Shown: positions 1,262 to 63,918, numbered from the stretch's first letter. The stretch is DNA of 64,000 bases from an uncultured delta proteobacterium (GCA_963816145.1 CAWFJP010000029.1:160001-224000), one strand, 5' to 3'. Numbers and translations: made by a program. Notes: generated from the sequence alone by a model not told the origin.

Positions 1262-1340
1262 TCACCACGAAGACACGAAGATCACGAAGGTAAGAAAAAA
1301 ATAAATTCCCAACTTCGTGTCCTTCGTGCCTTCGTGGTGA
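1262..1340. repeat. Tandem-inverted repeat, CACGAAG family
   Basis: tcaccacgaagacacgaagatcacgaag ... cttcgtgtccttcgtgccttcgtggtga. Confidence 0.9.
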
Positions 1341-7090: not shown

Positions 7091-7138
7091 TAAGCCGAGC
7101 GGGCAGAAATCGGTCGATACCAACGTGATTTGTCTTGC

Positions 7139-7224
7139 CGTCATTCCGGCGTAGGCCGGAATCCAGGTTCTCTTTGATCCTACAACAATAGCCAAGATGG
7201 ATGCCGGCCTCCGCCGGCATGACG
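7139..7224. repeat. CGTC-type REP doublet
   Basis: cgtcattccggcgtaggccggaatcca ... tggatgccggcctccgccggcatgacg. Confidence 0.85.
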
Positions 7225-7320
7225 GATTCCACGCTTGACGGCAACCGAGGGATTACGACTATCCCCAAGTGTGACATTACTCGGACCATGCCATAGTCGA
7301 TCGAACTTTTACAAATTCCT

Positions 7321-8406: not shown

Positions 8407-8486
8407 TCACCACGAAGGCACGAAGGACACGAAGGTTCGGAGCTTATTTTTCTTAAACTTCGTGCTCTTCGTGTCCTTCGTGGTGA
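8407..8486. repeat. Tandem-inverted repeat, CACGAAG family
   Basis: Three CACGAAG units, spacer, three CTTCGTG units. Confidence 0.9.
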
Positions 8487-9382: not shown

Positions 9383-9438
9383 CTTGGTTGCCTCCTAAAT
9401 TGTCTGACCAAAATTCTTTTTATCACGAAAACACTAAG

Positions 9439-9638
9439 TGCCCATGAGCTTACGCTCGTCTACAGGATATGAAATTGCATGGAACCCCCTGCACATGGTT
9501 CTTGCCTTGTCTCGTCATGCCGGCGAAGGTCGGGATCCAAGGGAGGAAGGGGGATGGATACCGGCTTTCGCCGGTATGACGGAAGCCTTGTGCCGATTCG
9601 TGGTTCAGCGCGTAGCTGCATACGTAATTTCAAATGAG
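9439..9638. mobile_element. ~200-bp non-autonomous element (copy A) carrying a CGTC-REP doublet, inserted in a CACGAA repeat
   Basis: Colinear homology with 22441-22641; CATGAGCTTACGCTCGTCTACAG left end, AATGAG right end. Confidence 0.75.
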
Positions 9639-9730
9639 CGCACACGAAAAATTATCTCCACGTTTCGTGTCTTTCGTGGTTGCATCTTTCCTCTCGTGGC
9701 GTGGCTGACACGGGTGCAGCATGCTGTTCC

Positions 9731-10776
9731 CTAGGGAACGGTGCCCCATAGATCCTTTAGGAATCCGCTTTTGATAAGGTTGTCGGTGAAGCTGTTGTCA
9801 TAAAGCTCTTCCGGTTTGCGCCGCAGCTGCGGCACTTCTTCGCGCGCCATCTCGACGGCGTCGGCTACGGTTTTACCGGGCACCGTCATGCGCCGATTGA
9901 CCAACCTGCGGGCGTAGGCTTGATAGGCGGATTGGAGCACTTCCGGGTCGTTGATGGCGAGCGCTTTGCCGAGGCTTTGGCTCGCTTTCTCGGGATTTTT
10001 TTCGACGAAATAAATCGTTTCGCTCATCGCCGCGACAAAACGTTGAACCAACTGCGGGCGCTCTTTGATGGTTTTCAAATTGGTCAGGATCGAGCTGTAG
10101 ATCGACGGCACATCGAGCTCTTGGAGATTGAAAATCAACTGAAAGCCGTCACGCTTGGCGCGCACGTCCAGGGGTGGTGTTACCAGCACCGCGTCCGCCA
10201 GCCCTTGGAGGAGCGCGTTGTACGGTTCCAACTGTCCGGTGCCGCCGATGTGCAGAAGTTTTACGTCCTGGGTTGTCAGGTTATGTTTTTTCAGTACGGC
10301 CTTGGCGAGATGATCGGTTAAGCCCCCGGGTCGGGATACAGGTATAGTTTTGCCTTTGAGATCGCTCGGCCGCTTGATTTCGCTTCGCCCCATCAAGACC
10401 CAAGGCAAGCCGACGATCAATGAACTGACGATCTTCGCCTCGGCGCCGGCAGCCATGCGCGGAATCTGCGGGTCGGCGGAGCAATACAAAAACTGAATGC
10501 CGTCTGTGACCAGTGCTGTAATCGTCACCGCACCGCCGCGCAGCGTGACATTCTCGACTTTGATGCCGTACTTCTCGAATAATCCGTTGGCGAGCGCGGC
10601 ATAGAGGTGAATGAAGCCGCCTGAAGTGCCGCAGGTGCCGACGCGGATGTTGATCGGCGCTTCGCCTGGCTTGGGCAGGTAGGGATTGGCGGAAGATGGG
10701 TGAGGAGTGAGGAGTGAGAGAGTTAGGAGTAAGAAGACAAGCGAGCAACAGATCGAGTTCCTTTGGATCCGAACGA
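9731..10776 (-). CDS. ABC transporter substrate-binding protein (NMT1/SsuA-like); start codon uncertain
   Basis: GLFEKYGI, DLKGKTI, SGFLKDLW; a signal-like segment lies directly next to a repeat cluster and has no nearby ATG/GTG/TTG. Confidence 0.8.
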
Positions 10777-10777
10777 T

Positions 10778-11030
10778 CCTTCCCCCTCGACAGACTGTGT
10801 CGCAACTGTCATTTCGAGGTGAAGCCGAGAAATCTCTTCTTCGTATGTGGCTGAAAAGACGAGATCCCTCGCTGCGCTCGGGATGACAGATGCGGGGCAT
10901 TTGCGCATTACGACACAGCCTCCGACGGGGGAAGGTTAGGATGGGGGTGCCCGGATTTAGAAATTGCTGATCAGTCGCGAAAATACGACTATTCACCCCC
11001 ACTCTAGCTCTCCCCCGTCGAGGGGGAGAG
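10778..11030. repeat. Doublet of CCCCC-TCGAC-GGGGG hairpin repeats; left copy interrupted by a MITE
   Basis: ccttccccctcga|...|cgacgggggaaggttaggatgggggtg ... cacccccactctagctctcccccgtcgagggggagag. Confidence 0.75.
10791..10922. mobile_element. 132-bp MITE with 15-bp imperfect TIRs and CGA target duplication, carrying a TGTC-REP doublet
   Basis: cagactgtgtcgcaa ... ttacgacacagcctc; cga at 10788-10790 and 10923-10925. Confidence 0.75.
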
Positions 11031-11100
11031 AATCGCAAAAAGCGGGGGAGCCGCGCGCAGTTAACAGGCGATCGGGTCATTGGAATGTTCGTTGTGGGCC

Positions 11101-12327
11101 TCATCCCCAGGGACCCAGGAAAGGTTCGCCGGCGTAGGCGTCGGAGTTGGCGTCCAAGGTTGCCGGCCATTCGCTCATGGGCTTCGCTTGGCGCAATTCT
11201 TTGGGGCGCGGTTTGCCGTCCCAGCCGATCTGCTCCATGGCGCAGTAGAGTTGGATCAAATGGCCGTCAGGGTCGCGCAGGTAGGCGCCGTGATCGATGC
11301 CGGGATGAAGCTCTAGCGGCAGAGCGTCATTGGCTTGGTAGCCGTTGTTGGTGAAATATTGCACCGCCTCTTTGAGCTGGCGGAAGTTAGCGAGTTGCAG
11401 CCCCAACGCGGCGCATTTGCTGTGTTCACTTAGGCCGAGCGCTCGACGCGCCGCCAGGGGCAATAGCGCCAGCGAGTGGTGCTCGGTGTTGCAGCGGAAG
11501 AATAAACAGCGATGGCCCTGCCAGGTCGCTTCCTCGGTGAACGTAAAACCCATGCGCTGGCGGTAAAAAGTCTCCGCGGCGGCCATGTCCTCGGTAAACA
11601 AATAGACCGGCCCCAGGCGGACGATCTTGAACGGGCGCGGCAGGGCGATGCCGTCGACATCGTAGCCGGCCGTTAAATCGTCGACATGGCGATAGCCGCT
11701 GGTGAGATCGATGCCGGCGGCGCGGGCGCGCTCGACCTCCTCGAACTCCGATATCTGCGGCAATTGCGGGGGCCGGTCGAAGGCGCGGTCGTACATGCTG
11801 CGCGGTTTGCTGTGGCCGTTCCAGCCGATTTGCTCGATGCCGTAGTAAAGCTCGTTGCTCTGGCCGTCGGGATCGAGCAGGTAGGTATGCCAATTGGAGC
11901 CCGGCATGTCGCGGCCGGAGCGCTGCTGTTTGATGCCATTGGCGTCGAACCATTTGATGGCGTTGCTCACTTCACTCATGCTGCCGACCTGCCAGGTGAT
12001 TTGATTCACCGTCACGCCGGGCGCCTCGGCGCGTCCGAGCGCGTCGCGCACGCGCTTGGGAAACAGCACCATGGAATGATGGTCGGTGCCGTAACGGGTG
12101 AAGTAGCCGTTCGGATCGCCCAATCCGGCGACTTGTTCCGGGCTCTTGGCACGTTTGGAATAGTCCATCACGTCGGAAACCTTGAAGCCCAATAAATCGA
12201 CGTAGAAGTGCCGGCCTTCTTCCATATTCGTCATATTGAAACCGAAATGTCCGAGCCGGCGAATCCTGAATGGCCGGTCGAGCACGACGCCGCCGACATT
12301 GAATTTCTCGAATTTCTCCTCTGCCAT
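11101..12327 (-). CDS. Two-module VOC family protein (extradiol dioxygenase-like)
   Basis: RLGHFG, DHHS, YLLDPDG..NELYY repeated as RLGPVY, EHHS, YLRDPDGHLIQLY. Confidence 0.85.
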   Translation of the reverse strand: MAEEKFEKFNVGGVVLDRPFRIRRLGHFGFNMTNMEEGRHFYVDLLGFKVSDVMDYSKRAKSPEQVAGLGDPNGYFTRYGTDHHSMVLFPKRVRDALGRAEAPGVTVNQITWQVGSMSEVSNAIKWFDANGIKQQRSGRDMPGSNWHTYLLDPDGQSNELYYGIEQIGWNGHSKPRSMYDRAFDRPPQLPQISEFEEVERARAAGIDLTSGYRHVDDLTAGYDVDGIALPRPFKIVRLGPVYLFTEDMAAAETFYRQRMGFTFTEEATWQGHRCLFFRCNTEHHSLALLPLAARRALGLSEHSKCAALGLQLANFRQLKEAVQYFTNNGYQANDALPLELHPGIDHGAYLRDPDGHLIQLYCAMEQIGWDGKPRPKELRQAKPMSEWPATLDANSDAYAGEPFLGPWG

Positions 12328-12467
12328 GCGCTGCCTCCGTAAAATCTCCGGTCCTCTCTATACAATCTTTCGTTTGCGCCTACAACGTGAATCGCCGCGA
12401 AAGCCTGGGCTGTAGTTCAGTTCGGAAGGGTCCCTCGTGTCCTCCGTGATTTTGGCTACTTTAGATT

Positions 12468-12494
12468 TGTCATTTCGAGCGAAGCGAGAAATCT
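12468..12494 (+). repeat. TGTC-type REP singlet
   Basis: tgtcatttcgagcgaagcgagaaatct. Confidence 0.75.
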
Positions 12495-12637
12495 ATTCGA
12501 CTCACTGCCTCGGGTCGAATTCAAAGCTGAACCGCCCGAAAAATTCAACTTGCAAGCGGCCAGGCGTTGGAATATCAATAGGCTGCACATTAAAGTTTAT
12601 CGGCCCGACAACTGATAATCATCCCAGGAGGTTCACA

Positions 12638-13495
12638 ATGGCTTTACAGGAAATGCATACTGGCGGCAAAATATCTTGGCCAGGCGATGCTCGGATCGCG
12701 GTCTTACTGAGCTTCGACTTCCAAGGCGGCGAAGATGTCCGGCCGGATAAGAACGGCAAGATGAACCATGAAGAATACACCCAGGCCGAATACGGCCCGA
12801 ACACCGGGATCTGGCGCATACTCCGTATTCTCGCCTCCCACGAGGTGAAGGCGACTTTTCTCACCTGCGGCGGTATCGCCGAACGCTATCCTGAAGCAGT
12901 GGCGGCGATTGTCGCCGCTGGTCATGAGGTGGCGGGCCACGGCTATCATCACGAAGTGGCGCGCGATCTCTCCCGCGACGAAGAGCGTGATGTCATGAAG
13001 CGAACCACGGATATGATCCTCAACCGGGCGCAGAAGCGGCCGGTGGGTTGGCGCTCCTGCACCCAGAGTCCCAATAGCATCGAACTGTTGATGGAGCAGG
13101 GCTATTTGTGGAACAGCAATTCGTTCTCCCACGATCTGCCGTTTGTTTGGCAAAACGGCAAGAAAAAACTCGTCGAGCTGCCGCGCCAGCCCTTTGGCGA
13201 CGGACGCGCTTATGGCCATCGCGATTCAGGCAATCCCAACGACACCCTGGCGATCTGGAAAGGGATGTTCGATCAGTTCTACGAAGAATCGAGCCTGGCG
13301 CCGACGTTCTGTCCGTTCCAGTTTCATCCGTATATCTCGAGCCGTCCGGGCCGCGCCAAAACTCTGTCCGATATCATCGGCCACATGAAGTCGCAGAAAG
13401 GCGTGTGGTTTGCCACCGGGAGTGAAATCGCCCACTGGTGGCTGGAGAAGGGATTCTCGGCCGAGGTCAATGCGAAAATCTCGAAGGTGGCGTGA
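12638..13495 (+). CDS. Polysaccharide deacetylase family (PuuE/allantoinase-like)
   Basis: WPGDARIAV, EYG..TGIWRIL, GHEVAGHGYHH, PVGWR, FHPYISSRPGR; RBS aggagg. Confidence 0.85.
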   Translation: MALQEMHTGGKISWPGDARIAVLLSFDFQGGEDVRPDKNGKMNHEEYTQAEYGPNTGIWRILRILASHEVKATFLTCGGIAERYPEAVAAIVAAGHEVAGHGYHHEVARDLSRDEERDVMKRTTDMILNRAQKRPVGWRSCTQSPNSIELLMEQGYLWNSNSFSHDLPFVWQNGKKKLVELPRQPFGDGRAYGHRDSGNPNDTLAIWKGMFDQFYEESSLAPTFCPFQFHPYISSRPGRAKTLSDIIGHMKSQKGVWFATGSEIAHWWLEKGFSAEVNAKISKVA

Positions 13496-13505
13496 GGAAA
13501 ATGAC

Positions 13506-13535
13506 CGTAGGGGCGCAGCCTGCTGCGCCCCTACG
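13506..13535. repeat. GTAG-type REP palindrome between convergent genes
   Basis: cgtaggggcgcagc-ct-gctgcgcccctacg. Confidence 0.8.
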
Positions 13536-13537
13536 AC

Positions 13538-14074
13538 TTATGATTTGAACCAGTAGCGGATTTTCTTGCGCAATCCGCGGCCCATTCTTTTTTTCAACTC
13601 AAACCAGACCCGCAAAAACCAGTTGCGCGACGACCAGGCGAAGGACGTCGAGGTCGTGATCCACTGGTGGTTGAATTCAAACTCGGCTTTGAATTTTCTC
13701 AGTTGCAGGGTCTTGCCGAACTTGCGTTTGAAGATCGCTTTGACGCTGACGGCGTTGCGCGACTCGACGAACACGGTGATGGTCTCGACGGGGAGCAGGG
13801 AGCGGATGCGGCTGATCTTTTGCGCCAGGCCGACCTCGTTGTTGGCGCTGACTTCAACGATGTTGCCGATCAATTCCGGGTCGTTGAGGGCTTGGTCGAC
13901 GATTTCCCGGCGCAGTTTGATTTCCTGCCCGTGATCGGTGTCATAGCCGGCCAAGACCAAATAGGTCTTGTGCTTGGTTGTCTGCATGGACTTCTGCCAC
14001 CAGTCGAGGGATCGCTCCAAAGAGGATCGCGAAGCCTGCGATAGGCGGGTGGGGTCCAGTACGCCGTAGGGCAT
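13538..14074 (-). CDS. Hypothetical protein (start uncertain)
   Basis: 178-aa ORF with host-like GC3 bias. Confidence 0.7.
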   Translation of the reverse strand: MPYGVLDPTRLSQASRSSLERSLDWWQKSMQTTKHKTYLVLAGYDTDHGQEIKLRREIVDQALNDPELIGNIVEVSANNEVGLAQKISRIRSLLPVETITVFVESRNAVSVKAIFKRKFGKTLQLRKFKAEFEFNHQWITTSTSFAWSSRNWFLRVWFELKKRMGRGLRKKIRYWFKS

Positions 14075-14137
14075 GGCGACGATAACAATGGAAATGGTGC
14101 GGCGCTCCTTTGCTGTGAACCAAGAAGAAATCTTGCT

Positions 14138-14761
14138 CTAAGGTTGGAAAATCATGACGTCGACCGGTTTGCCGCCGACAGCGAGATCCGGACAGGCGCT
14201 CAAGGCAACCAAGAGATCCATCTCGGCACGCAGATCCATGTAGTTGCCCTCTGGCGGACGTACCTGGGTATGCTCCATCTTGCCGGTCTTGCCGTCGATG
14301 ATCATATGCTGGTTCAAGTTGAACGGGCTGGGAATATCTTCGGGAATGATGCCGTAGGATGCCACCGCCTTGGACAAATTCTCATAACAGCCGTGATCGG
14401 GGATTTCCTTGATTTCGCGCGGATAATATTCGCCCAGGCGGTTTTCCTGCTGGGCTAGCTTGAAGCGGTAGCCGCTGCACATGCCTTTTTGCAAGTCGTG
14501 GGTGCCGACTTTGTTGCCGTCGTAGACGATCGTCATCATATGCTGATTGTTGCGTCCCATGAGCTTGTCGCCGGCGCTGATGAACAGTTTCATGTTGTAG
14601 ACCTTGGTGCGAGGCTGGTCGAAGCGCTCGATCAGATTTTGCAGTTTGAAGAAAACAAAATCCACCGTGGTGGTCGCGGTGATGCGGATGATCTGGTTTT
14701 GCTTCATCTCCGCCGACCAGCCGGTGTTATAGGGCACATGGTTCTGCAGAATCGTTTTCAT
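14138..14761 (-). CDS. Urea carboxylase-associated family protein (DUF1989), paralog of 577-1215
   Basis: ERFDQPRTK, HDLQKGMCS, HGCYENL, RAEMDLLVALSACP; RBS gaggag. Confidence 0.85.
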   Translation of the reverse strand: MKTILQNHVPYNTGWSAEMKQNQIIRITATTTVDFVFFKLQNLIERFDQPRTKVYNMKLFISAGDKLMGRNNQHMMTIVYDGNKVGTHDLQKGMCSGYRFKLAQQENRLGEYYPREIKEIPDHGCYENLSKAVASYGIIPEDIPSPFNLNQHMIIDGKTGKMEHTQVRPPEGNYMDLRAEMDLLVALSACPDLAVGGKPVDVMIFQP

Positions 14762-14787
14762 TCTTGGAATTCTCCTCAATCGACGAA

Positions 14788-15825
14788 TTACCGGGATTTG
14801 TAAAGCGCGTCGACGAAGCCGCTGCTGACCAAGTCGCGGATGAAGCGTGAGTCGGCAAAGCGCTGCGGCGTGGTGCCGGGCGGAATTGCGCGCGACGCCG
14901 ACAGTTCTTCGATGATCGTTTGAATGGCCGCTGGCGTCGCCTCGGGCGCGCGCTTGAAATATTTGGACGCGTAAATCTCGTAGATTTTTTCCGTGGCGGC
15001 CGTGGTCTTTTGCTTGGTATATTTCTCCAATACCGCCAACGCCGCGGTCTTGTCGGATTTGAACCGATGAATGCCTTCGACATAAGCTTTCATGAAGCGT
15101 GTCACCAGGTCGGGCTGGCTTTTCAGAAACGTTTGGCGCGCCGCGAACGGACCGAAGGGATAGACCAAGCCGGAAGTCGACACATCGGCGAGGCGCACCA
15201 AGCCGCCGGCTTCGGCGCTGATGGTCTCCGGTCCGGTTGAAAGCACGCCGCTTTGCACCGAGCCGCCTCTGATCGCCGCGAAAATTTGCGGTCCGGAACC
15301 GGTTTGAAAAATCGCCACGTCTTTGTCCGGTTGCAAGTTCCATTTCTTCAGCAGATAGCGGGCGACGAAATCGGTGGTCGCGCCGATGCGGCTGACGCCG
15401 AGTTTTGTGCCTTTGAGCTGCTCCGGAGTCTTGATGCTCGGCGTGGACCACAGTTCGAATGGCAAGGAGTCGATGGTCGCGCCAAGCAGGACTACGTCCG
15501 AGCCTTGCAGATTGGCGGCCACCGTGGCGCCGCCGGCGGTAAACGAGATCGCCACGTCGCCGGCGATGAGCGCTTGCAGAGATGGCGGTCCGCCAGCGAT
15601 GTAAATGAACTCCGGCTCGATGTTGTATTTTTTGAAAATGCCGGCTTCCTTGGTCAGCCACAGCGGTCCGTAGACGACCGCGATCGAAGTGTAGGCGATG
15701 CGTAAGGTTTCGGCGCGAAGCGGCCCCGCGCACACGAGGCCTATCAGCACTGTCAAGCCTAATGCCCGGAGGGCGCGGCTGCTGCGGCTTTTCGTGGTTT
15801 TCGCTAGTCCGTTAGCCGCTTTCAT
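14788..15825 (-). CDS. ABC transporter substrate-binding protein (NMT1/SsuA-like)
   Basis: Signal peptide; GIFKKYNI, LKGTKLGVSRIG, SGFVDALY. Confidence 0.9.
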   Translation of the reverse strand: MKAANGLAKTTKSRSSRALRALGLTVLIGLVCAGPLRAETLRIAYTSIAVVYGPLWLTKEAGIFKKYNIEPEFIYIAGGPPSLQALIAGDVAISFTAGGATVAANLQGSDVVLLGATIDSLPFELWSTPSIKTPEQLKGTKLGVSRIGATTDFVARYLLKKWNLQPDKDVAIFQTGSGPQIFAAIRGGSVQSGVLSTGPETISAEAGGLVRLADVSTSGLVYPFGPFAARQTFLKSQPDLVTRFMKAYVEGIHRFKSDKTAALAVLEKYTKQKTTAATEKIYEIYASKYFKRAPEATPAAIQTIIEELSASRAIPPGTTPQRFADSRFIRDLVSSGFVDALYKSR

Positions 15826-16019
15826 TGACAAATCTGTAGGTTAGATCACCAAGCCTGTCAAGTTAGGCACATGTTAATCTTGCGGGCTCTTTTGACCGTT
15901 CAGCGACTTGAAATATTGAAGGTTTCCATGCGCGCCCTCGTCCAAGTAAACCTTTCTCGGACCTGGTCGTCCAACTCGATACGACGCCTAATAAGGAAAA
16001 ATCAAAAAGGAGACTGACA

Positions 16020-16427
16020 ATGAAAAAGGCAATCGTAATCGGCTTGAGTATTCTGGCTCTTGGCAGCGCGTTTCCAGCGATGGCGCACGAGTCCTTCGAC
16101 AGGCGGGGAGATCGCATCGATGCGCGGTTCGATGCCAGAGGCGATCGAATCAACGATCGGCTCGACGCCCGCGGTGATCGTATCAATGACCGGCTCGATG
16201 CTTTAGCGGCGAAGGCGCGAGCTGAAGGCAAGTTTGGACTGGCGAATTATTTGGACCGCAAAGGCGATTTCATTGAAGAGCGTCTCGATCGCCGTGGTGA
16301 TTGGATCGAGCAGCGTCTCGACAATCGCGGTGATCGCTTCGAAAACCGCTTTGACCGGCTTGGCGACCGAATCAATAACCGGTCCGATGATATCGGCAAC
16401 CATCGCCGCCCTTGGTATCGCAACTAA
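16020..16427 (+). CDS. Secreted protein with 11-residue (D/N)xRGDRI repeats
   Basis: Signal peptide MKKAIVIG...AMA, RBS aaggag, 33-nt period repeats. Confidence 0.8.
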   Translation: MKKAIVIGLSILALGSAFPAMAHESFDRRGDRIDARFDARGDRINDRLDARGDRINDRLDALAAKARAEGKFGLANYLDRKGDFIEERLDRRGDWIEQRLDNRGDRFENRFDRLGDRINNRSDDIGNHRRPWYRN

Positions 16428-16456
16428 ACTTTGACGAAATCACCCGAACGAATCGA

Positions 16457-16483
16457 GTTCACTTCCTCTTCGAGGAAGTGAAC
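16457..16483. terminator. Hairpin between convergent genes
   Basis: gttcacttcctc-ttc-gaggaagtgaac. Confidence 0.65.
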
Positions 16484-16513
16484 CGGTTCTCATTCATTAT
16501 TGCGCAACGCCGT

Positions 16514-17776
16514 CTAACCGTGAAAGTACTCCTTGAATCCCGTCACCATCAGATTCGCCAATCCTTCGTTGTAGCTTTCGACATGCCCGTAGTGGGTTAA
16601 ATTCGGAACCATAATCAAGCGCAAGGAGTCGGCGTAGGGTTTGAAGCGTTTAAAGGCGTAGACCTCGCGGCGAAACTCCAATCCTTTTTCGCCGCCCTCG
16701 ATCCAATGACCCTTGTCGAACTCGCCGACGATGTGCAGTAGTTTTTTGCCGCGCAGCCGTTCAAGTTGTGACTTGTAGGTAATGAAGAGCTCATCGTCCG
16801 GCAGTCCGGAGACCTTTTTGATCTCGGGAATCAAGACATCATGGGCGCTATGCTCGATATCTTGCAGAAAGGGTTTGAACTGCGGTCGGCGGTGGTTTTC
16901 CAACTCGAACCATGTTTCGACGCTGCCCCAGGGCTGGTTTGGCCCGACGTAGCCGCTCTTGGCATAGCCTTTGGGCGAGCGCCGGCTCAGGTCGGTCAAG
17001 TTGCGAAATTGCGCGGCGCGTTCCTCGGGCGATTTTTCAGCGCAGGCGAGATCCCATTCCTTGCGCACCCAGGCCGGCATGCCGGTGCCGAAGCCGAGGC
17101 CGCCGATCAGTTTGTTCTTGAGGCCGTATTGCTCCATCAAATAAAAATACTCGCCACCGGTGGAGTGGCCCCACATGAAGATCGACTCTTTCAGACTCTT
17201 CTCGACCAGAGCTTTGATCGCTTCGGTGCACATCCTAAAAGTGTAGACCGCCAGACGGTTGCGCAGCTCGTTGTCGCCGGGGAATTGGCCGAGGATGAAC
17301 TCCGGGCGCCGTTCGGCAATCGGCGCCCAAGGCTTTGCGCTGTAGTGGCCGGGCAGCGAGATCGCCAGCACTGGAATGCCCAACGATGCGATATGCTGCG
17401 CTACGCCGACGCGCGCTTTCTTCGCGTCGGTTTTGCTCAGGTCGGGATAAGCTTCCGGGCCGTCGGGGGTAAATATAAATTCATACTCGTTGGCGGCGCC
17501 GCCGTGGATCATGACGACCGCTGTGTCCGGGATTGAAATTTTCGCTGGAGTGAACAAGCGACCATGGATATCCCATTGAAATAGTTCGCCGGGTTTTTCC
17601 GGATTCGGATAGCGGTGGATGGATTCTTGGACCTCTCGGACCGTAACGGCGGTACGCGCAAATGGATCGGGAAATGCTTTGTAGTCGTCGAACGACATAT
17701 AGAAAATGAAATCGTCCTTCAGTCCCGCGCCTGATCGTAGCGCTGCGACAACTTTGTTCATTGATTCTTGACTCAT
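16514..17776 (-). CDS. Hypothetical alpha/beta hydrolase-fold protein
   Basis: IHGG, LPGH, GHSTGG nucleophile elbow, GEFD, THYGH. Confidence 0.75.
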   Translation of the reverse strand: MSQESMNKVVAALRSGAGLKDDFIFYMSFDDYKAFPDPFARTAVTVREVQESIHRYPNPEKPGELFQWDIHGRLFTPAKISIPDTAVVMIHGGAANEYEFIFTPDGPEAYPDLSKTDAKKARVGVAQHIASLGIPVLAISLPGHYSAKPWAPIAERRPEFILGQFPGDNELRNRLAVYTFRMCTEAIKALVEKSLKESIFMWGHSTGGEYFYLMEQYGLKNKLIGGLGFGTGMPAWVRKEWDLACAEKSPEERAAQFRNLTDLSRRSPKGYAKSGYVGPNQPWGSVETWFELENHRRPQFKPFLQDIEHSAHDVLIPEIKKVSGLPDDELFITYKSQLERLRGKKLLHIVGEFDKGHWIEGGEKGLEFRREVYAFKRFKPYADSLRLIMVPNLTHYGHVESYNEGLANLMVTGFKEYFHG

Positions 17777-17903
17777 CGGTAATGCTCCCAATCGCAAGAT
17801 ACGTGACCTTACAACTTATGTTTGCACGGATTCGAGTTGTCAACCGATTTGCTAAGGTGGTCGTGGTTCAGTTTGAGTCGGGCGGACGTTTTCAGCCTGA
17901 AAA

Positions 17904-17972
17904 AGATTTCTCGCTTCGCTCGAAATGACAGCAGAATAGTCGCCTTGTCATCTCGAACGAAGTGAGAGATCT
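17904..17972. repeat. TGTC-type REP doublet
   Basis: agatttctcgcttcgctcgaaatgaca ... tgtcatctcgaacgaagtgagagatct. Confidence 0.85.
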
Positions 17973-18058
17973 CTATCTAACTGAAACGCTACCGCTAGGG
18001 TTGATGCCGCGGGCGATTACGGTTAAAAAAGCACAGACATCCTTCAGGAGGCAGTGCA

Positions 18059-19159
18059 ATGGCAGAAGCAGTGAATCGTCCTTCCTATCAAGCGGTCGAC
18101 AGCAGGGTCGAGATCATGGATACGCCGTACGATCGCTGGATCGCGTCCCAAGGGATCGATATCGTGCGCGGTTTTTTCGTCGAGGATCTCTACACGACGC
18201 CGCTCAAATGGTGGGATCGCATCGGTGGCAACGGTGTCTGCATCATGCTCGACGGCGCCGGCTATATGGACGACGCTTATGTCATCGGCATCTCGCCCGG
18301 GAAAAGCCTCAACCCGCAGCGACATATTTACGAAGCGCTGGTCTACGTGCTGGCCGGCCGCGGCGCGACCACGGTCTGGCAGGAAAATGGCGCCAAGCAA
18401 ACCTTCGAGTGGCAAACCGGCAGCTTGTTCGCCGTGCCGCTCAACGCCTGGTATCAGCATTTCAACGGCCAGGGCGATCAGGAGGCGCGGCTGTTGTCGG
18501 TGACCACGGCGCCGCTGATTTTCAATCTTTTCCGCAACGCGGATTTCGTCACCAACTGTCCTTATTCATTCACCGAGCGGTTCAAGGGCGAGGACGGCTT
18601 CTTTACCGGCGGCGGCAAGCTCTACAGCGATCGGGTGGTCGAAACCAACTTCGTCGCCGATGTCGTCAATATCGAGCCGGTGGAGTGGAGCGAGCGCGGC
18701 AAAGGCAACGCGACGATCTTTTTCGAAATGTCCGAGAGCATGATGGGTTCTCATGTGTCGCGCTTTCCCGTCGGTCTTTACAAAAAAGCCCACCGCCATG
18801 GACCGGGCGCCCATGTCTTTATCCTGACCGGCAAGGGTTATTCATTGCTTTGGCCCGAGGGCAAGGAGATGACGCGGGTCGACTGGAAACCCGGTTCCAT
18901 CGTCGTGCCGCCGGAGGGCTGGTTCCATCAGCATTTCAACTCTGGCGCCGAACCGTCGCGCTACCTGGCGCTAAAAATCCTCAGCCGCAAATTCAAACTG
19001 CAGCCCGGCAAGATTCAATCCGACGTGCCACTGGCCTACGGCGGCTGGCAGATCGAGTACGAAGACGAAGATCCGATCATCCGCCAGACTTTCGAGGAGG
19101 AGTGCGCCAAATCGGGCGCCGAGGTGCGAATGCCGAAGTTTGCCAAAGCCGCCAATTGA
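18059..19159 (+). CDS. Bicupin protein (gentisate dioxygenase-like fold)
   Basis: Two cupin motifs: QRHIYE...WYQHFN and AHRHGPG...WFHQHFN. Confidence 0.85.
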   Translation: MAEAVNRPSYQAVDSRVEIMDTPYDRWIASQGIDIVRGFFVEDLYTTPLKWWDRIGGNGVCIMLDGAGYMDDAYVIGISPGKSLNPQRHIYEALVYVLAGRGATTVWQENGAKQTFEWQTGSLFAVPLNAWYQHFNGQGDQEARLLSVTTAPLIFNLFRNADFVTNCPYSFTERFKGEDGFFTGGGKLYSDRVVETNFVADVVNIEPVEWSERGKGNATIFFEMSESMMGSHVSRFPVGLYKKAHRHGPGAHVFILTGKGYSLLWPEGKEMTRVDWKPGSIVVPPEGWFHQHFNSGAEPSRYLALKILSRKFKLQPGKIQSDVPLAYGGWQIEYEDEDPIIRQTFEEECAKSGAEVRMPKFAKAAN

Positions 19160-19220
19160 CAAGCGTATGGGGCTTTTCTAATAATATCCTGTACATCGTT
19201 GATAAATTAAGGAGAAATTC

Positions 19221-20051
19221 ATGCTGAAACCGATCGGAATGACCGAAGGGCACTATGAGTGCCGCTCTCTCGATGAGACGCTGCCGATTTTCACCGAGTT
19301 GTTGGCTGCTGAGGTGATCGAGCGCAGCGACAAGCAGGCGGTAGTCAAGCATCCCAACACCAAGTGGCGCTTGGTGATTCACGAAGGCGGACCGGACTCG
19401 AAGAACAAGCCGCACACCAATCACTATGGCTTTCGTGTCAGCACTTCCAAGGAAATCCCGATCGCGCACCAGTATATTTCCGACCATAAGGCGCAATACA
19501 AGATCAAGAGCGTGACGCCGCCGCACGAGGCGCATTTCGCCTATTCGATTTATTTTAAAGAACCGGGCGGCAACGATCTGGAGTTGGAATACTACAATCC
19601 GGCGGCGATCAAACAGGGCCGCCGCATCGCCGCGCCGCATTGGACCACGCCGCTACCGGAAGAAAAGTTTCCCGGCAGAGGCTATGTGCCCCAGGCGATG
19701 ACCCATGGCACGCTCAATTGCGACGACAAGGAAACCAGCGATCAGTTTCTCGCCAATGTGCTCGGCCTGGATATCATCGGCGGCGGCCGCACCTCGACCT
19801 ATATCAGCGTGCCGAACATGGGGCCGTGGTACGTCGTGGTGTTACCGACGACGCACCGCGATTATCTGTCCGAGGCTAACCGTTTCACCCTGCAAGTGGC
19901 CAGCCCCGAAGAAGTCGAAGTCGCGCACAAAGAATTCTCGAAAAACGGCAAACAGTTGGGCATCCACGATGTCCGCGAATTGAAGACCAATGGACGGGCG
20001 CATTTTCTCCTGAGCGATATCAGCAAGAACTGGTGGGAGATTACCTCGTAG
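19221..20051 (+). CDS. VOC family protein
   Basis: NHYGFRV, YFKEPGGNDLELE, LSDISKNWWEI; RBS aaggag. Confidence 0.8.
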   Translation: MLKPIGMTEGHYECRSLDETLPIFTELLAAEVIERSDKQAVVKHPNTKWRLVIHEGGPDSKNKPHTNHYGFRVSTSKEIPIAHQYISDHKAQYKIKSVTPPHEAHFAYSIYFKEPGGNDLELEYYNPAAIKQGRRIAAPHWTTPLPEEKFPGRGYVPQAMTHGTLNCDDKETSDQFLANVLGLDIIGGGRTSTYISVPNMGPWYVVVLPTTHRDYLSEANRFTLQVASPEEVEVAHKEFSKNGKQLGIHDVRELKTNGRAHFLLSDISKNWWEITS

Positions 20052-20074
20052 GACTTGCGTCGGCACTGAATTAG

Positions 20075-20115
20075 ACGCCGCTGACAGCGCTGCTGTTAGC
20101 GGCGTTTTTGTTTTT
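20075..20115 (+). terminator. Rho-independent terminator
   Basis: acgccgctgacagc-gct-gctgttagcggcgt followed by a T-tract. Confidence 0.8.
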
Positions 20116-20172
20116 GTCCTGGTGGGAGACGGTCCGCTCAGGCTTGTCCTGCGTAGTCGTTCACTTAGACCG

Positions 20173-20241
20173 AGATCTCTCACTTCGTTCGAGATGACAA
20201 ATCGATTATTCTGCTGTCATTTCGAGCGAAGCGAGAAATCT
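20173..20241. repeat. TGTC-type REP doublet
   Basis: agatctctcacttcgttcgagatgaca ... tgtcatttcgagcgaagcgagaaatct. Confidence 0.85.
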
Positions 20242-20344
20242 GTCTTAGGATGAAGACCTGTGCTCGACTCAAACGGAACCACTACCTTGTCTTGACAGTC
20301 GTTCATGCGAACGGTTATAGGGGCGAACAGACACGGAGGTTTTC

Positions 20345-21388
20345 ATGTACAACGGACCGGTGATCGATGCCGACGGGCATGTGTTGGAGAAAGAAAAGTA
20401 TATCCGCAAATATCTCGAAAAGCCGTGGGATAAGCGCTCGACTGCGCTGCGCACGCGCGATCAACCTTGGGACGCCAATTTGTTCGATAGTTTCGAGATG
20501 GCTGTGCGTTGGGAAGATTTATCGCCCAAGGAGCAGATCGACGAGTGGCATGCGGTTATGGATCGCGAGGGCATGGAGTACGCGATCTGTTTCCCCACCG
20601 GCTCGGGCAATGTCTCGAAGCTCCAAGAGTTGGATTTCGCCCTGGCGATCGCGCGCGCTTCGAACACGCAGTTCGCCAAGGAGTTCAACGCCCACTCCAA
20701 TAGGGTCAGCTGCGTCGGCGTGTTGCCGCTGCGCGATCCCAAAGCGGCGGTCGAGGAAATGCGCCGCGCGGTAAACGAATTGGGCCTGAAGGGTTTCGAG
20801 ATTCTGCCGATGGGCTTGCCGTTGGCCCTGGGCAGTACGTTTTACGATCCGGTCTACGCCGAGGCGGAAAAGCTAGGCGCGGTGATCGGTATTCACGGTT
20901 CGCGGAGTAATTCCCACGAACTGGGAGCGGACAAATTGTCGACCTTTGCCGAGGTCCATTCGTATGCATTTACCGTGGGGCTGCTGTTGCAGTTTACCCA
21001 TGTGGTCGGACAGGGAGTACCGATCCGTTTCCCCAATTTGAAACTGGCTTTTTTGGAAATCGGCGCCACCTGGCTGCCGTACTATTTGGACCGTCTCGAC
21101 GAGCACTGGGAAAAGCGCGCCAAGCACGAAATGCCGCTGCTCAAAGAAAAACCCAGCGATGTCGTGCGCAAGTCGAAGATGTGGTTCAGTCTCGAATCCG
21201 GCGAGTCGCTGTTGCCTGAGGCGATCAACTATCTCGGCGCGGAACATTTTCTTTATGCCTCGGATATTCCGCATTGGGATAGTGAGTTTCCCAGTAACTT
21301 ACATGCGTTGCGCAATCATCCGCGCATCAGCGACACCGACAAGGAAAAGATTCTTTATAGCAATGGCAAGCAGCTTTTCAATTTGTAG
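20345..21388 (+). CDS. Amidohydrolase_2 family protein
   Basis: IDADGHV, IH, FLEIG..WLPY, YASDIPHWD. Confidence 0.9.
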   Translation: MYNGPVIDADGHVLEKEKYIRKYLEKPWDKRSTALRTRDQPWDANLFDSFEMAVRWEDLSPKEQIDEWHAVMDREGMEYAICFPTGSGNVSKLQELDFALAIARASNTQFAKEFNAHSNRVSCVGVLPLRDPKAAVEEMRRAVNELGLKGFEILPMGLPLALGSTFYDPVYAEAEKLGAVIGIHGSRSNSHELGADKLSTFAEVHSYAFTVGLLLQFTHVVGQGVPIRFPNLKLAFLEIGATWLPYYLDRLDEHWEKRAKHEMPLLKEKPSDVVRKSKMWFSLESGESLLPEAINYLGAEHFLYASDIPHWDSEFPSNLHALRNHPRISDTDKEKILYSNGKQLFNL

Positions 21389-21414
21389 GGCTTTGCCAGA
21401 ATCGGCAGGTAGAG

Positions 21415-22407
21415 ATGAAACTTCGCTTTGCTCTCATTGCGGTCAGCTTAATCGCTGGCGCCGGGCTTACCGGCAGCCTCTGGGCCGCCGATAAGCTGGT
21501 GGCGCTTTATTCCGCTCACGCGGTGCCTTATTCGATGCCCTGGGTTGCCGAGGAGCTGGGATTATTCAAGAAGCAAGATATCGATTTCGACTTTGTCTAC
21601 ATTCCTTCGTCGTCAACGGCAACCGCGGCGATACTTGGCGGTAACGTCGAAATTGGGCTCTTGGGCGGCGTCGGTGTCGTCAACGCTTTCGTCAGTGGCG
21701 CGTCGGACTTGGCGTTCATCGGCAGTATCAAGAACATCATGACGCAGAGCATCTTGGCCAAGCCTGACATAACCCGGCTTGAACAGTTGCGCGGCAAGCG
21801 CATCGGCGTCACGCGCATCGGCAGTAATACCCACTACTTCACAGTCCAAGCGTTTCGCCGCGCGGGGATGAACACCGATAAGGATATCACGTTCATCCAG
21901 ACCGGTGGCGAGGCCGAGACTGTCGGCGCGCTGATGTCAGGACGCATCGATGCCGCGACGCTATTGCCACCGAGCGACGGCAGGGCGCTGGCACTGGGAT
22001 TTCGCTATGTGGTCTTCGGTCCGGACATCGATATCCCTTACGCGGCGTCTACCATCGCGACGCGGCGCTCGCTGATGGCCAAGCGCGGGCCGGCGATGGG
22101 CCGTTTCATGCGCGCCATGGCTGAGGCGTCGCGAGCGATGCATCGGGATAAAGAGCTGGTCTTTCGGGTCATGGAGAAAAAGCTGCGAATCAACGATCGC
22201 GCGGTGTTGGAAGCCAGTTACGCCATTGAAATGAAAGTCATGGAGCCGCGGCTGGCTCTCAAAGCGCCGGCGCTCCAGCCAATGCTCGAAGAGGTCGCCC
22301 GCACCAACCCGAGGGCGAATGAGATCAAGCCCCAGGACATGATGGATCGGCGGTATTTGGCGGAGATGGAAAGCAGCGGCTTCTTCAGCCAGCTGTGGGG
22401 CAAATAG
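21415..22407 (+). CDS. ABC transporter substrate-binding protein (NMT1/SsuA-like)
   Basis: Signal peptide; LRGKRIGVTRIGS, SGFFSQLW. Confidence 0.9.
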   Translation: MKLRFALIAVSLIAGAGLTGSLWAADKLVALYSAHAVPYSMPWVAEELGLFKKQDIDFDFVYIPSSSTATAAILGGNVEIGLLGGVGVVNAFVSGASDLAFIGSIKNIMTQSILAKPDITRLEQLRGKRIGVTRIGSNTHYFTVQAFRRAGMNTDKDITFIQTGGEAETVGALMSGRIDAATLLPPSDGRALALGFRYVVFGPDIDIPYAASTIATRRSLMAKRGPAMGRFMRAMAEASRAMHRDKELVFRVMEKKLRINDRAVLEASYAIEMKVMEPRLALKAPALQPMLEEVARTNPRANEIKPQDMMDRRYLAEMESSGFFSQLWGK

Positions 22408-22430
22408 TTCAACGAGAACTTGTTGTCCTC

Positions 22431-22901
22431 AACCACGAAGTGGTCATGAGCTTACGCTCGTCTACAGAGTTTGAAATTGCAACCATCCCACCACACCATA
22501 GTTTTTCCCTTGATTCGTCATGCCGGCGAAGGCCGGCATCCAGGGGGCGGGAGGGGATGGATACCGGCTTTCGCCGGTATGACAGAAACCTCGTGCCAAT
22601 TCGTCGCCCGGATCATACTTGCACATGTATTTTCTAATGAGGATACGAAGAGCACGAAGTTCGGAAATTCGGTCATGCGAAACCTTCAGGTCCTTCGTTC
22701 TGCCATCCGTGATAGTTTGCGCGGTGTGGGCAAATTGCCCGGGAGCCGAAGCCACTCGGATTAAGATATTCCTCGCGCCAAGGGCGCCAAGATCGCAGAG
22801 TTATCTATTTTTATTCTGTTCCTTGGCGGTCTGAGCGTGCTTTGCGCGAGATCTTCCGAATTTTGGTTGCAGCTCCGGCGCGGTGCGATCTTCGTGGTGA
22901 A
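22431..22901. repeat. CACGAAG tandem-inverted repeat with both arms interrupted by nested elements
   Basis: aaccacgaag|insert|gatacgaagagcacgaag ... ccttcaggtccttcgt|insert|gatcttcgtggtgaa. Confidence 0.75.
22441..22641. mobile_element. ~200-bp non-autonomous element (copy B) carrying a CGTC-REP doublet
   Basis: Colinear homology with 9439-9638. Confidence 0.75.
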
Positions 22902-48403: not shown

Positions 48404-48484
48404 TCACCACGAAGGCACGAAGGACACGAAGGTTTCGGAAATATTGTTATTCCGAACTTCGTGATCTTCGTGTCCTTCGTGGTG
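48404..48484. repeat. Tandem-inverted repeat, CACGAAG family (inside the operon)
   Basis: Three CACGAAG plus three CTTCGTG units. Confidence 0.9.
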
Positions 48485-50876: not shown

Positions 50877-50956
50877 TCACCACGAAGGCACGAAGAGCAC
50901 GAAGTTCGGAAACGTAATTGTCCGAAACCTTCGTGTCCTTCGTGCCTTCGTGGTGA
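50877..50956. repeat. Tandem-inverted repeat, CACGAAG family
   Basis: Three CACGAAG plus three CTTCGTG units. Confidence 0.9.
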
Positions 50957-56146: not shown

Positions 56147-56229
56147 TTCACCACGAAGGGCACGAAGATCACGAAGGTCGGAATTCAAAATTGGCGAACC
56201 CTTCGTGTCCTTCGTGCCTTCGTGGTGAA
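56147..56229. repeat. Tandem-inverted repeat, CACGAAG family
   Basis: Three CACGAAG plus three CTTCGTG units. Confidence 0.9.
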
Positions 56230-63782: not shown

Positions 63783-63801
63783 TCCGCTCCTGATCTTTGC
63801 C

Positions 63802-63885
63802 AGTCATACCGGCGCAAGCCGGTATCCATCTTGTTTTCTGGTTTGCCGGCAAGAACCCTGGATTCCGGCTTTCGCCGGAATGACG
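63802..63885. repeat. CGTC-type REP doublet
   Basis: gtcataccggcgcaagccggtatcca ... tggattccggctttcgccggaatgacg. Confidence 0.85.
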
Positions 63886-63918
63886 ACTGTGTGGCAGCCC
63901 GTGATGGGGAGTTCCATT

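Follow-up and report, generated by a model that had tools for sequence, protein, structure and literature searches.

The closest known case to the repeat described here is the pair formed by MITEPpu9 (the ssr9 module) and ISPpu9, an insertion sequence (IS) of the IS110 group, in Pseudomonas putida KT2440. The available text of that study (PMC12288879) gives an A box of 43 bp that contains a stem-N4-stem palindrome, a B box of 16 bp and an AG recombination site, together with targets in repetitive extragenic palindromic (REP) sequences and bacterial interspersed mosaic elements (BIME), tandems of the IS with the module and circles of the module alone, and it shows mobility experimentally. Here we describe a 200-bp repeat, hereafter the mini element, which occurs twice in a window of 64,000 nt (C29:160001-224000, the whole stretch of DNA that was analysed) from an uncultured delta proteobacterium and at 58 loci in its genome. 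These repeats are very probably transposase-less derivatives of an IS110-group IS, of which they retain a left end of ~41 nt and a right end of ~14 nt. The ~145 bp between the kept ends are unrelated to the IS and include a REP-like doublet.

Two further lines of earlier work frame this comparison. Durrant et al. described non-coding regions of IS621-type elements that encode a bridge RNA, two internal loops of which pair with the target and with the joined element ends, each including the 2-nt core; in the available portions of that paper (PMC11208160) the guides matching the top strand lie on the 5' side of the loops. Insertion into other repeats is also on record, as the accessible parts of the sources state that IS1111 inserts into a REP inside QMITE2 of Coxiella burnetii (PMC5896051) and that the target of ISPpu10 forms a stem-loop (bioRxiv 10.64898/2026.03.19.712850). 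As far as those texts describe them, both cases resemble the mini element in that the target of an IS110/IS1111-family element lies inside another dispersed palindromic repeat able to form a stem-loop. However, there it is the full IS that nests, whereas here it is mostly a miniature derivative, itself holding a third repeat. A search of the literature, supplementary files excluded, found no published description of this IS or mini element in Binatia; what is new is this particular pair of mini element and IS, while the kind of selfish DNA to which they belong is already known.

The genome in question (G000) is an assembly of 7.82 Mb in 31 contigs with ~56% G+C, 99.5% complete and with a contamination estimate of 6.7%. 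Copy A of the mini element, the older of the two in the window, lies at 9439..9638 on the + strand (200 bp; positions 1-200 of a 201-position nhmmer profile, score 181), and copy B, which belongs to the younger main subfamily and is 91-94% identical to six other copies of the family, at 22441..22641 on the same strand (201 bp). The two are colinear and 79% identical (E 4.2e-42). Their left ends run from 9439 to ~9479 and from 22441 to ~22481, with the palindrome GAGC-TTAC-GCTC at 9446-9457 and 22448-22459, and the block CATGAGCTTACGCTCGTCTACAG, identical in both, belongs to the ~41-nt conserved left end. The REP-like doublet occupies 9513-9581 in copy A and 22516-22584 in copy B, and the right ends are AATTTCAAATGAG (9626-9638) and ATTTTCTAATGAG (22629-22641), with AATGAG in both. 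In each case the left flank ends in ..AAG and the element in ..AG. The 200-bp element has neither the terminal inverted repeats nor the target duplication of a classical MITE (miniature inverted-repeat transposable element), and the inverted repeats found at wider range are part of the host hairpin repeat. A preliminary description of this DNA had listed these shared features of the two copies, the absence of terminal inverted repeats included, and all of them are seen in both; its count of two insertions captured a real element but not its scale, which is tens of copies (58), and the left block that it singled out is only part of the longer end.

Both copies interrupt a palindromic repeat built of CACGAAG units. 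Left of copy A (9424..9438, +) stand the degenerate left-arm units CACGAAA and CACTAAG, ending in the AG core and with 2 mismatches to CCACGAAG; the remainder of the hairpin to its right (9639..9681, +) is also degenerate and reads CGCACACGAAA .. TTTCGTG TC TTTCGTGG. Copy B follows the outer unit CAACCACGAAG of its hairpin (22430..22440, +), again ending in the AG core, and is followed at 22642..22700 (+) by units 2 and 3, GATACGAAG AGCACGAAG, after which come TTCGGA, a loop and the decayed right arm CCTTCAGGTCCTTCGTT.

Across the genome the family was counted with an nhmmer profile made from 44 full-length BLAST hits, a locus being accepted where at least 150 of the 201 positions were covered. 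Of the 58 loci so defined in this 7.8-Mb genome, 46 score above 140 bits and 12 represent more distant subfamilies. When the left and right ends were searched with separate profiles, 48 of the 50 paired loci gave a distance of 60-130 bp and the remaining two 134 and 207 bp, and therefore this genome holds no long, gene-bearing copy and no copy without the internal doublet. The 200-bp copies are thus non-autonomous here, as the preliminary description had proposed.

The target is a hairpin of ~75 bp, a palindrome with three CACGAAG units in each arm (3+3), and the insertion point lies directly after the outermost TCACCACGAAG unit and before the second, so that the left end of the element adjoins the outer unit. 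A left unit with at most one mismatch to CCACGAAG or CCACAGAG is present at 53/58 copies, a hairpin unit stands immediately to the right of the element in 43/58 and right-arm units follow within 110 nt in 41/58. The left flank terminates in AG in 52/58 copies and the element itself in 47/58, which agrees with the earlier proposal of a site-specific element with an AG core. Sequence logos give TTCACCACGAAG for the left flank, TGT(C/T)CATGAGCT for the left end and TTTTC(T/G)AAGGAG for the right end. When 70-nt flanks were aligned, nearly all copies shared the same surroundings: TTCACCACGAAG on the left and, on the right, G(A)CACGAAG-AG-CACGAAG-TTCGGA, then the loop, after which the right arm of the hairpin reads TCCGAA-CTTCGTG-TC-CTTCGTG-CTTCGTGGTGA. 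An empty junction, CACCACGAAG-G(A)-CACGAAG, compares with an occupied CACCACGAAG|TGT..AAGGAG|G(A)CACGAAG; the joint is seamless, with no target duplication, and its boundary slides by two letters, AG being common to the target and the right end. Removal of the insert, allowing for that ambiguity, restores the uninterrupted members of the hairpin family, as had been suggested from copy B.

Empty hairpins are plentiful. Perfect 3+3 palindromes number 72 in the genome, so there are at least 72 empty copies, and further empty hairpins in which one or two units failed the regular expression number 35, 30 and 24. The palindrome exists in two mirror forms, both of them occupied as judged by eye; the regular expression left 38 of the 58 copies unclassified. 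In one relative (L183) an element in the opposite orientation sits in the right arm, an expected result if recognition of the outer unit follows the strand that bears it. Eight copies sit in a sister hairpin family made of CACAGAG units, and they form an insert subfamily of their own. A guide inside the mini element was considered as an explanation for the CACGAAG and CACAGAG subfamilies and rejected, as the discriminating columns carry no GA/AG swap. Within the window, empty 3+3-unit CACGAAG palindromes, with no strand assigned, lie at 1266..1336 (C29:161266-161336), 8411..8482 (C29:168411-168482), 48408..48481 (C29:208408-208481), 50881..50952 (C29:210881-210952) and 56152..56224 (C29:216152-216224).

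An autonomous partner for these repeats exists in related genomes. The same-genus search covered 31 genomes, and 16 further genomes represented two other families of the order. Thirty IS110 transposase loci were recovered from the genus, and the left-end profile of the mini element matches three of them, ~250 nt upstream of the gene and on the same strand. The partner transposase scores 289.5 bits with NF033542 (cut-off 140), and it matches ISCro4 and the IS621 transposase 8wt6 (E 4.5e-11), the latter in the C-terminal domain only. At locus L073 (genome G009) the element spans from ..TTTTCACCACGAAG|TGTGTCATGAGCTTACGCTCG.. to ..AAATTTTCGAAGGAG|GACACGAAGAGCACGAAG with a 421-aa transposase in between, and its left end, after ..TTTTCACCACGAAG|, reads on as TGTGTCATGAGCTTACGCTCGTCCACAG; L074 (from G005, flagged as unpublished; no conclusion rests on it) is structured in the same way, while L076 shows the left half and then the contig end. 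A scan of species-representative genomes added 11 more close copies in public metagenome-assembled genomes (MAGs), with 76-100% protein identity. The left flank CCACGAAG is present in 10/11 of these MAG loci and the right end TTTTC(G/T)AAGGAG in all nine that reach it, with hairpin units following in most. The full-length IS measures 1537-1552 bp, with ~240 nt of non-coding sequence before the ATG and ~30 nt from the stop codon to the right end. Homology between IS and mini element is restricted to the ~41 nt of the left end and the ~14 nt of the right end (L073, L074, L076, L102-L111/L140), and in one MAG (L104) the right end of the IS abuts the left end and doublet of a mini element, forming an IS-mini tandem.

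The preliminary description had pointed to the IS110 family and suggested looking for longer copies with the same ends around an IS110 gene; the three genus loci and 11 MAG loci, with their shared ends and shared target, are such copies. No inverted repeat between the IS ends was seen by eye at loci of the L073 type, and as a long non-coding region lies upstream of the transposase gene and subterminal inverted repeats are lacking, the partner is placed in the IS110 group rather than the IS1111 group.

The 5' non-coding region of the IS holds two segments that resemble guides. In 11/11 copies it contains C(C/A)CACGAAGUGUG, which equals the left target flank plus AG, and in 11/11 it also contains GCGAAGGAG, which equals the right end plus AG. 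The same arrangement recurs where target and end differ. An IS from Dehalococcoidia, 57% identical and present in five copies, has the target ..GTTCGGAAT and the right end ..GTAGCAAT, with both strings, the first as GTTCGGAAT(AT), at the equivalent 5' places, and an Enterococcus IS (43-44% identical) likewise has its own left flank, GGGACAAAC, and its own right end, CGTATAAA, copied in the 5' region. In all three lineages the right-end copy stands 58-61 nt ahead of the gene, and among control words 0/200 16-mers per lineage equalled the left-flank match, in each of the three. The guide-like segments thus covary with target and end in three IS lineages, which supports a guide function. Neither segment is present in the mini element, which must therefore borrow both recombinase and RNA.

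Two side observations concern these loci. The first guide-like segment (L102-L111) extends into letters matching the opening of the left end and thus reproduces the left junction as it stands after integration, rather than the empty target alone. Of the five Dehalococcoidia copies, two (L112 and L115, on the chromosome of a MAG) have a right end with a left end directly after it, either a head-to-tail tandem or an assembled circle-like junction.

The partner IS resembles IS621, as described in the available part of that literature, in its DEDD/IS110-family recombinase, its long 5' non-coding region, a 2-nt core and a REP-type target, and in having one segment that matches the left target and another that matches the left donor (the right end of the IS), each together with the core. 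It differs in the core, which in the sense of the transposase gene is AG and not CT as in IS621. The 5' region is predicted to fold into a closing stem and two stem-loops with internal loops, and no Rfam family matched on three IS loci. Should this predicted fold prove correct, the guides would be laid out differently from those of IS621.

These observations fit the following mechanism. The parent IS would encode a DEDD recombinase and also a putative bridge RNA, the latter in its 5' non-coding region of ~240 nt; one segment of this RNA would match the left target flank plus AG core and another the right end of the element plus AG core. Supplied in trans by a full-length IS, recombinase and RNA would cut out the mini element as a circle with the joint right end-AG-left end. 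The circle would then be recombined into a hairpin at the AG that separates the outer TCACCACGAAG unit from the CACGAAG unit after it, with no duplication and in an exactly reversible manner.

Comparison with relatives indicates how such an element may have behaved. Full-length mini copies, 67-85% identical, occur in at least 10 same-genus genomes, and the arrangement of the site is unchanged in the mini copies of eight relatives; none was found in the 16 genomes from the two other families. The flanks of 31 loci from relatives were placed on G000. At 10 orthologous sites the relative carries the insert and G000 an intact empty hairpin, in the same intergenic spacer and with flanks 76-92% identical, so that the empty sites named in the preliminary description as a test are present. 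These sites rest on 12 relative loci (L041, L052-L055, L057, L059, L063, L064, L068, L070, L071), in nine of which the size difference between occupied and empty is 175-199 bp, the other three giving 136, 241 and 259 bp. Two of the 10 polymorphic sites are each occupied in two relatives, and one other site, C3:781167, is occupied in G000 and in two relatives, G019 and G002. Loci L042, L051 and L048 were set aside as orthologous-site comparisons, being too rearranged to read. At the orthologous site of copy B the element is absent in nine relatives and in most of these the hairpin is absent too, so that this locus is not a clean empty site.

The relative ages of insert and hairpin are also informative. 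Among the G000 inserts, 76 pairs reach at least 88% identity (mean 90%), and the hairpin DNA adjoining them averages 60% identity, the sole exception being an assembly duplicate. That pair, C14:233207-233405 and C22:4068-4266, consists of identical copies with flanks 99% identical, and probably reflects assembly redundancy, not recent transposition. Copy B combines a well-kept insert with a decayed right hairpin arm. As insert identity lies far above hairpin identity, copy B being one example, the inserts are therefore younger than their host hairpins, and these sequence comparisons indicate that the mini element moves independently of the hairpin.

An alternative to such independent movement is that the insert has no transposition of its own. 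It could have been spread and lost by homologous recombination, gene conversion or template switching between hairpins, or hairpin and insert could be mobile as a composite, with empty hairpins produced by palindrome-directed exact deletion. The composite has perfect terminal inverted repeats, TTCACCACGAAG and CTTCGTGGTGAA, the CACAGAG hairpins hold a distinct insert subfamily of eight copies, the two sites at which two relatives are occupied and G000 empty could be exact losses, and G000 lacks a cognate transposase. However, the ~90%-identical inserts stand beside hairpins that are only ~60% identical and that differ in mirror form, loop and decay, and the homology available on the left side is merely ~12 nt. 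Furthermore, some copies keep the left unit with no hairpin to the right (e.g., C2:187047, C12:127043 and C1:155226), and exchange between hairpins would not account for the IS that has the same ends and uses the same site. We therefore consider this alternative decidedly improbable.

A second alternative is suggested by the seamless junction itself. Seamless insertion 3' of a fixed short sequence, together with subterminal hairpins, is also seen in IS200/IS605-type elements, and the mini element could be a palindrome-associated element moved as single-stranded DNA by a transposase of that type (Y1/HUH) or by a REP-associated tyrosine transposase (RAYT). Insertion is always 3' of ..CGAAG, without duplication or terminal inverted repeats, and the element has a small hairpin 8 nt in from its left end as well as a REP-like doublet; three IS200-type and three RAYT-like genes are present in the genome, one of the IS200-type genes being 1.4 kb from a copy. 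Against this, the two IS200 copies that can be aligned (L032 and L033) end in CCACCGCC..GGCGGTG and CTACCCGC..GCGGGTAG hairpins after ..TAAC, with ends and flanks unrelated to those of the mini element, whose right end has no matching hairpin. The RAYT-like genes score 65.8 and 74.3 against an NCBIfam cut-off of 80 and are flanked by other inverted repeats. As an IS110-family element with identical ends and target exists, movement by a Y1/HUH enzyme is very improbable, and the IS200-type and RAYT-like genes were rejected as mobilisers, their ends being unrelated to the 200-bp element.

The RAYT-like genes (L034-L036) are of some interest in themselves. Located at C29:1577-1903, C3:259404-259727 and C18:98882-99208, they encode proteins of 310-330 aa with an N-terminal Y1 (RAYT-like) domain and a C-terminal DnaA-type helix-turn-helix, and each is bracketed by its own inverted repeat starting GGGTCA, with a score just under the NCBIfam RAYT cut-off.

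The inner part of the mini element does resemble REP doublets forming hairpins (REPINs). The doublet, at profile positions ~72-147, consists of two inverted REP-like hairpins around a G-rich spacer, ~70 bp in all, and it is found in every mini copy of each species examined, its stem sequence varying from one species to another (e.g., L051). Related doublets also stand alone at 142 loci in the genome. Two of these are in the window, with no strand assigned, at 7132..7233 (C29:167132-167233; profile positions 67-152, matched on both strands) and 63801..63909 (C29:223801-223909). REPIN/RAYT systems differ from the whole element, however, in that the ends that define the 200 bp are not REPs and the RAYT-like genes of G000 are not flanked by these REPs. 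The doublet is internal, and for five of the six Y1 genes no REP core was found within 3 kb; the other gene, at C29:53351, has two cores 1.5 and 2.0 kb downstream, one of which is inside the local mini copy. The preliminary description saw the element as ferrying a third repeat family. The doublet in every copy and its kinship with the stand-alone doublets give partial support to that description. In the mini copy at C4:434170-434370 the G-rich spacer is flipped to the C-rich strand, likely by recombination between the REP arms.

A third alternative is that the repeat is chiefly a functional non-coding RNA, or a module of 3' untranslated regions or terminators, kept by selection, its likeness to mobile DNA being secondary. 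The copies are intergenic, orthologous copies can be kept across species (C3:781167, common to G000, G019 and G002), interior stretches that appear by eye to form stems differ between subfamilies, and MITEPpu9, according to the available text (PMC12288879), encodes a small RNA (sRNA). However, Rfam gave no match in the window at the gathering threshold, and up to E = 10 copy B drew only chance-level matches of microRNA type. RNAalifold run on 84 mini sequences, on both strands, predicts the stem of the REP doublet only, and presence or absence varies among close relatives. Folding of the variable region compared with shuffled sequences gave a mean z of -0.35, with z < -1 in 29% of 72 segments, and no claim is kept for a covarying hairpin that had been picked out there by eye. 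An RNA or terminator role of this kind is thus extremely unlikely to account for the family.

Several observations weigh against descent from, and mobilisation by, an IS110-group IS. The preliminary description stated that the enzyme acting in trans is not encoded in the window; tblastn shows that the cognate transposase is absent from the whole 99.5%-complete assembly as well. The sole match in G000 is an IS110-family gene on contig C13, 32% identical and with unrelated ends. Genomes G007, G010, G021 and G022 hold mini copies without an IS110 match at E <= 1e-20, although completeness is 60% for G010 and 86% for G022 and repeats assemble poorly, which bears on the patchy co-occurrence of IS and mini element. 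Sequence comparison gave no counterpart in the partner IS for the 145-bp interior. The right end reads CTAAGGAG in four of the nine readable ISs, yet the 5' region keeps GCGAAGGAG, so that this position is either unread or tolerant of mismatch, and in the predicted fold the two guide-like segments occupy the 3' strands of the internal loops, unlike the guides of IS621. Each polymorphic site may have arisen either by insertion in the relative or by precise loss from G000. Among distinct copies in G000 the closest are 96% identical, with no sign of recent activity there, and no circle junction or cross-element joint was found among short contigs from four soil-metagenome runs, in which contigs break in repeats.

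Two further observations may be recorded beside these. The C13 gene (C13:10788-11954; L038/L075), the only IS110-family gene of the genome, follows directly after, and in frame with, the end of a gene for a tetratricopeptide repeat (TPR) protein; it was rejected as the mobiliser, being 32% identical and lacking similarity at the ends. In soil-metagenome run X2, before window position 22444, one short contig carries a 16-letter string resembling the right end that abuts a left end; it could represent a tandem or a circle junction from some community member and is too weak to use.

We nevertheless favour a miniature derivative of an IS110-group IS, because both ends and the target are common to the IS and the mini element and the AG junctions are seamless, and because orthologous hairpins are found both occupied and empty and the guide-like segments covary. 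As the cognate IS is missing from this genome, its 58 copies are probably stranded relics of past activity.

The mini element may now be set beside MITEPpu9, as far as the latter is described in the available text. Both keep only the end boxes of an IS110-group IS, 43 + 16 bp there and ~41 + ~14 nt here, with a stem-N4-stem palindrome near the left end and an AG common to target and element; both lack inverted repeats and duplication, target palindromic extragenic repeats and occur in IS-mini tandems. All the listed traits of MITEPpu9 and ISPpu9 except the circles therefore have a counterpart here. The two differ in that their sequences are unrelated and their hosts belong to different phyla, that MITEPpu9 has 8 copies and the mini element 58, and that the parent IS is absent from the host genome here. 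The cargo is a REP-like doublet in the mini element, whereas in MITEPpu9 it is an sRNA gene complementary to an antisense RNA of the IS. Unlike that of MITEPpu9, the target of the mini element is a unit junction in a palindrome of 3x7-nt tandem units, and mobility, shown experimentally for MITEPpu9, is inferred for the mini element.

A more ambitious view, which we think unlikely, is that the mini element is a chimera that outlives its parent. It would join IS110 ends read by a bridge RNA in trans to a REPIN-like doublet open to copying or homogenisation by a RAYT-type enzyme, and it would be parked in a hairpin family that offers renewable, safe landing sites, with possible use by the host. 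Were this so, the 58 orphan copies would form a dormant population, to be re-awakened by any incoming IS of the right guide type, and the fit between insert subfamily and hairpin unit (CACGAAG or CACAGAG) would reflect the paired donor and target loops of different bridge RNAs.

As a transposase-less derivative of an IS110-group IS, the reading that we favour, the family is instructive for its three levels of nested repeats, its many copies without an enzyme, its clean empty sites and its readable triplet of guide, target and donor. The source of that triplet is an uncultured soil lineage, and two other lineages show the covariation. The family would be a natural, high-copy DNA dependent on a bridge recombinase and guide RNA supplied in trans, with empty and occupied sites in several species. 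For annotation, the 200-bp blocks and the hairpins around them would be treated as mobile DNA and not as RNA genes or regulatory sites. The finding bears on how IS110 elements and their hitch-hikers spread, on how such hitch-hikers persist after the enzyme is lost, and on the choice of 'safe' targets inside other repeats.

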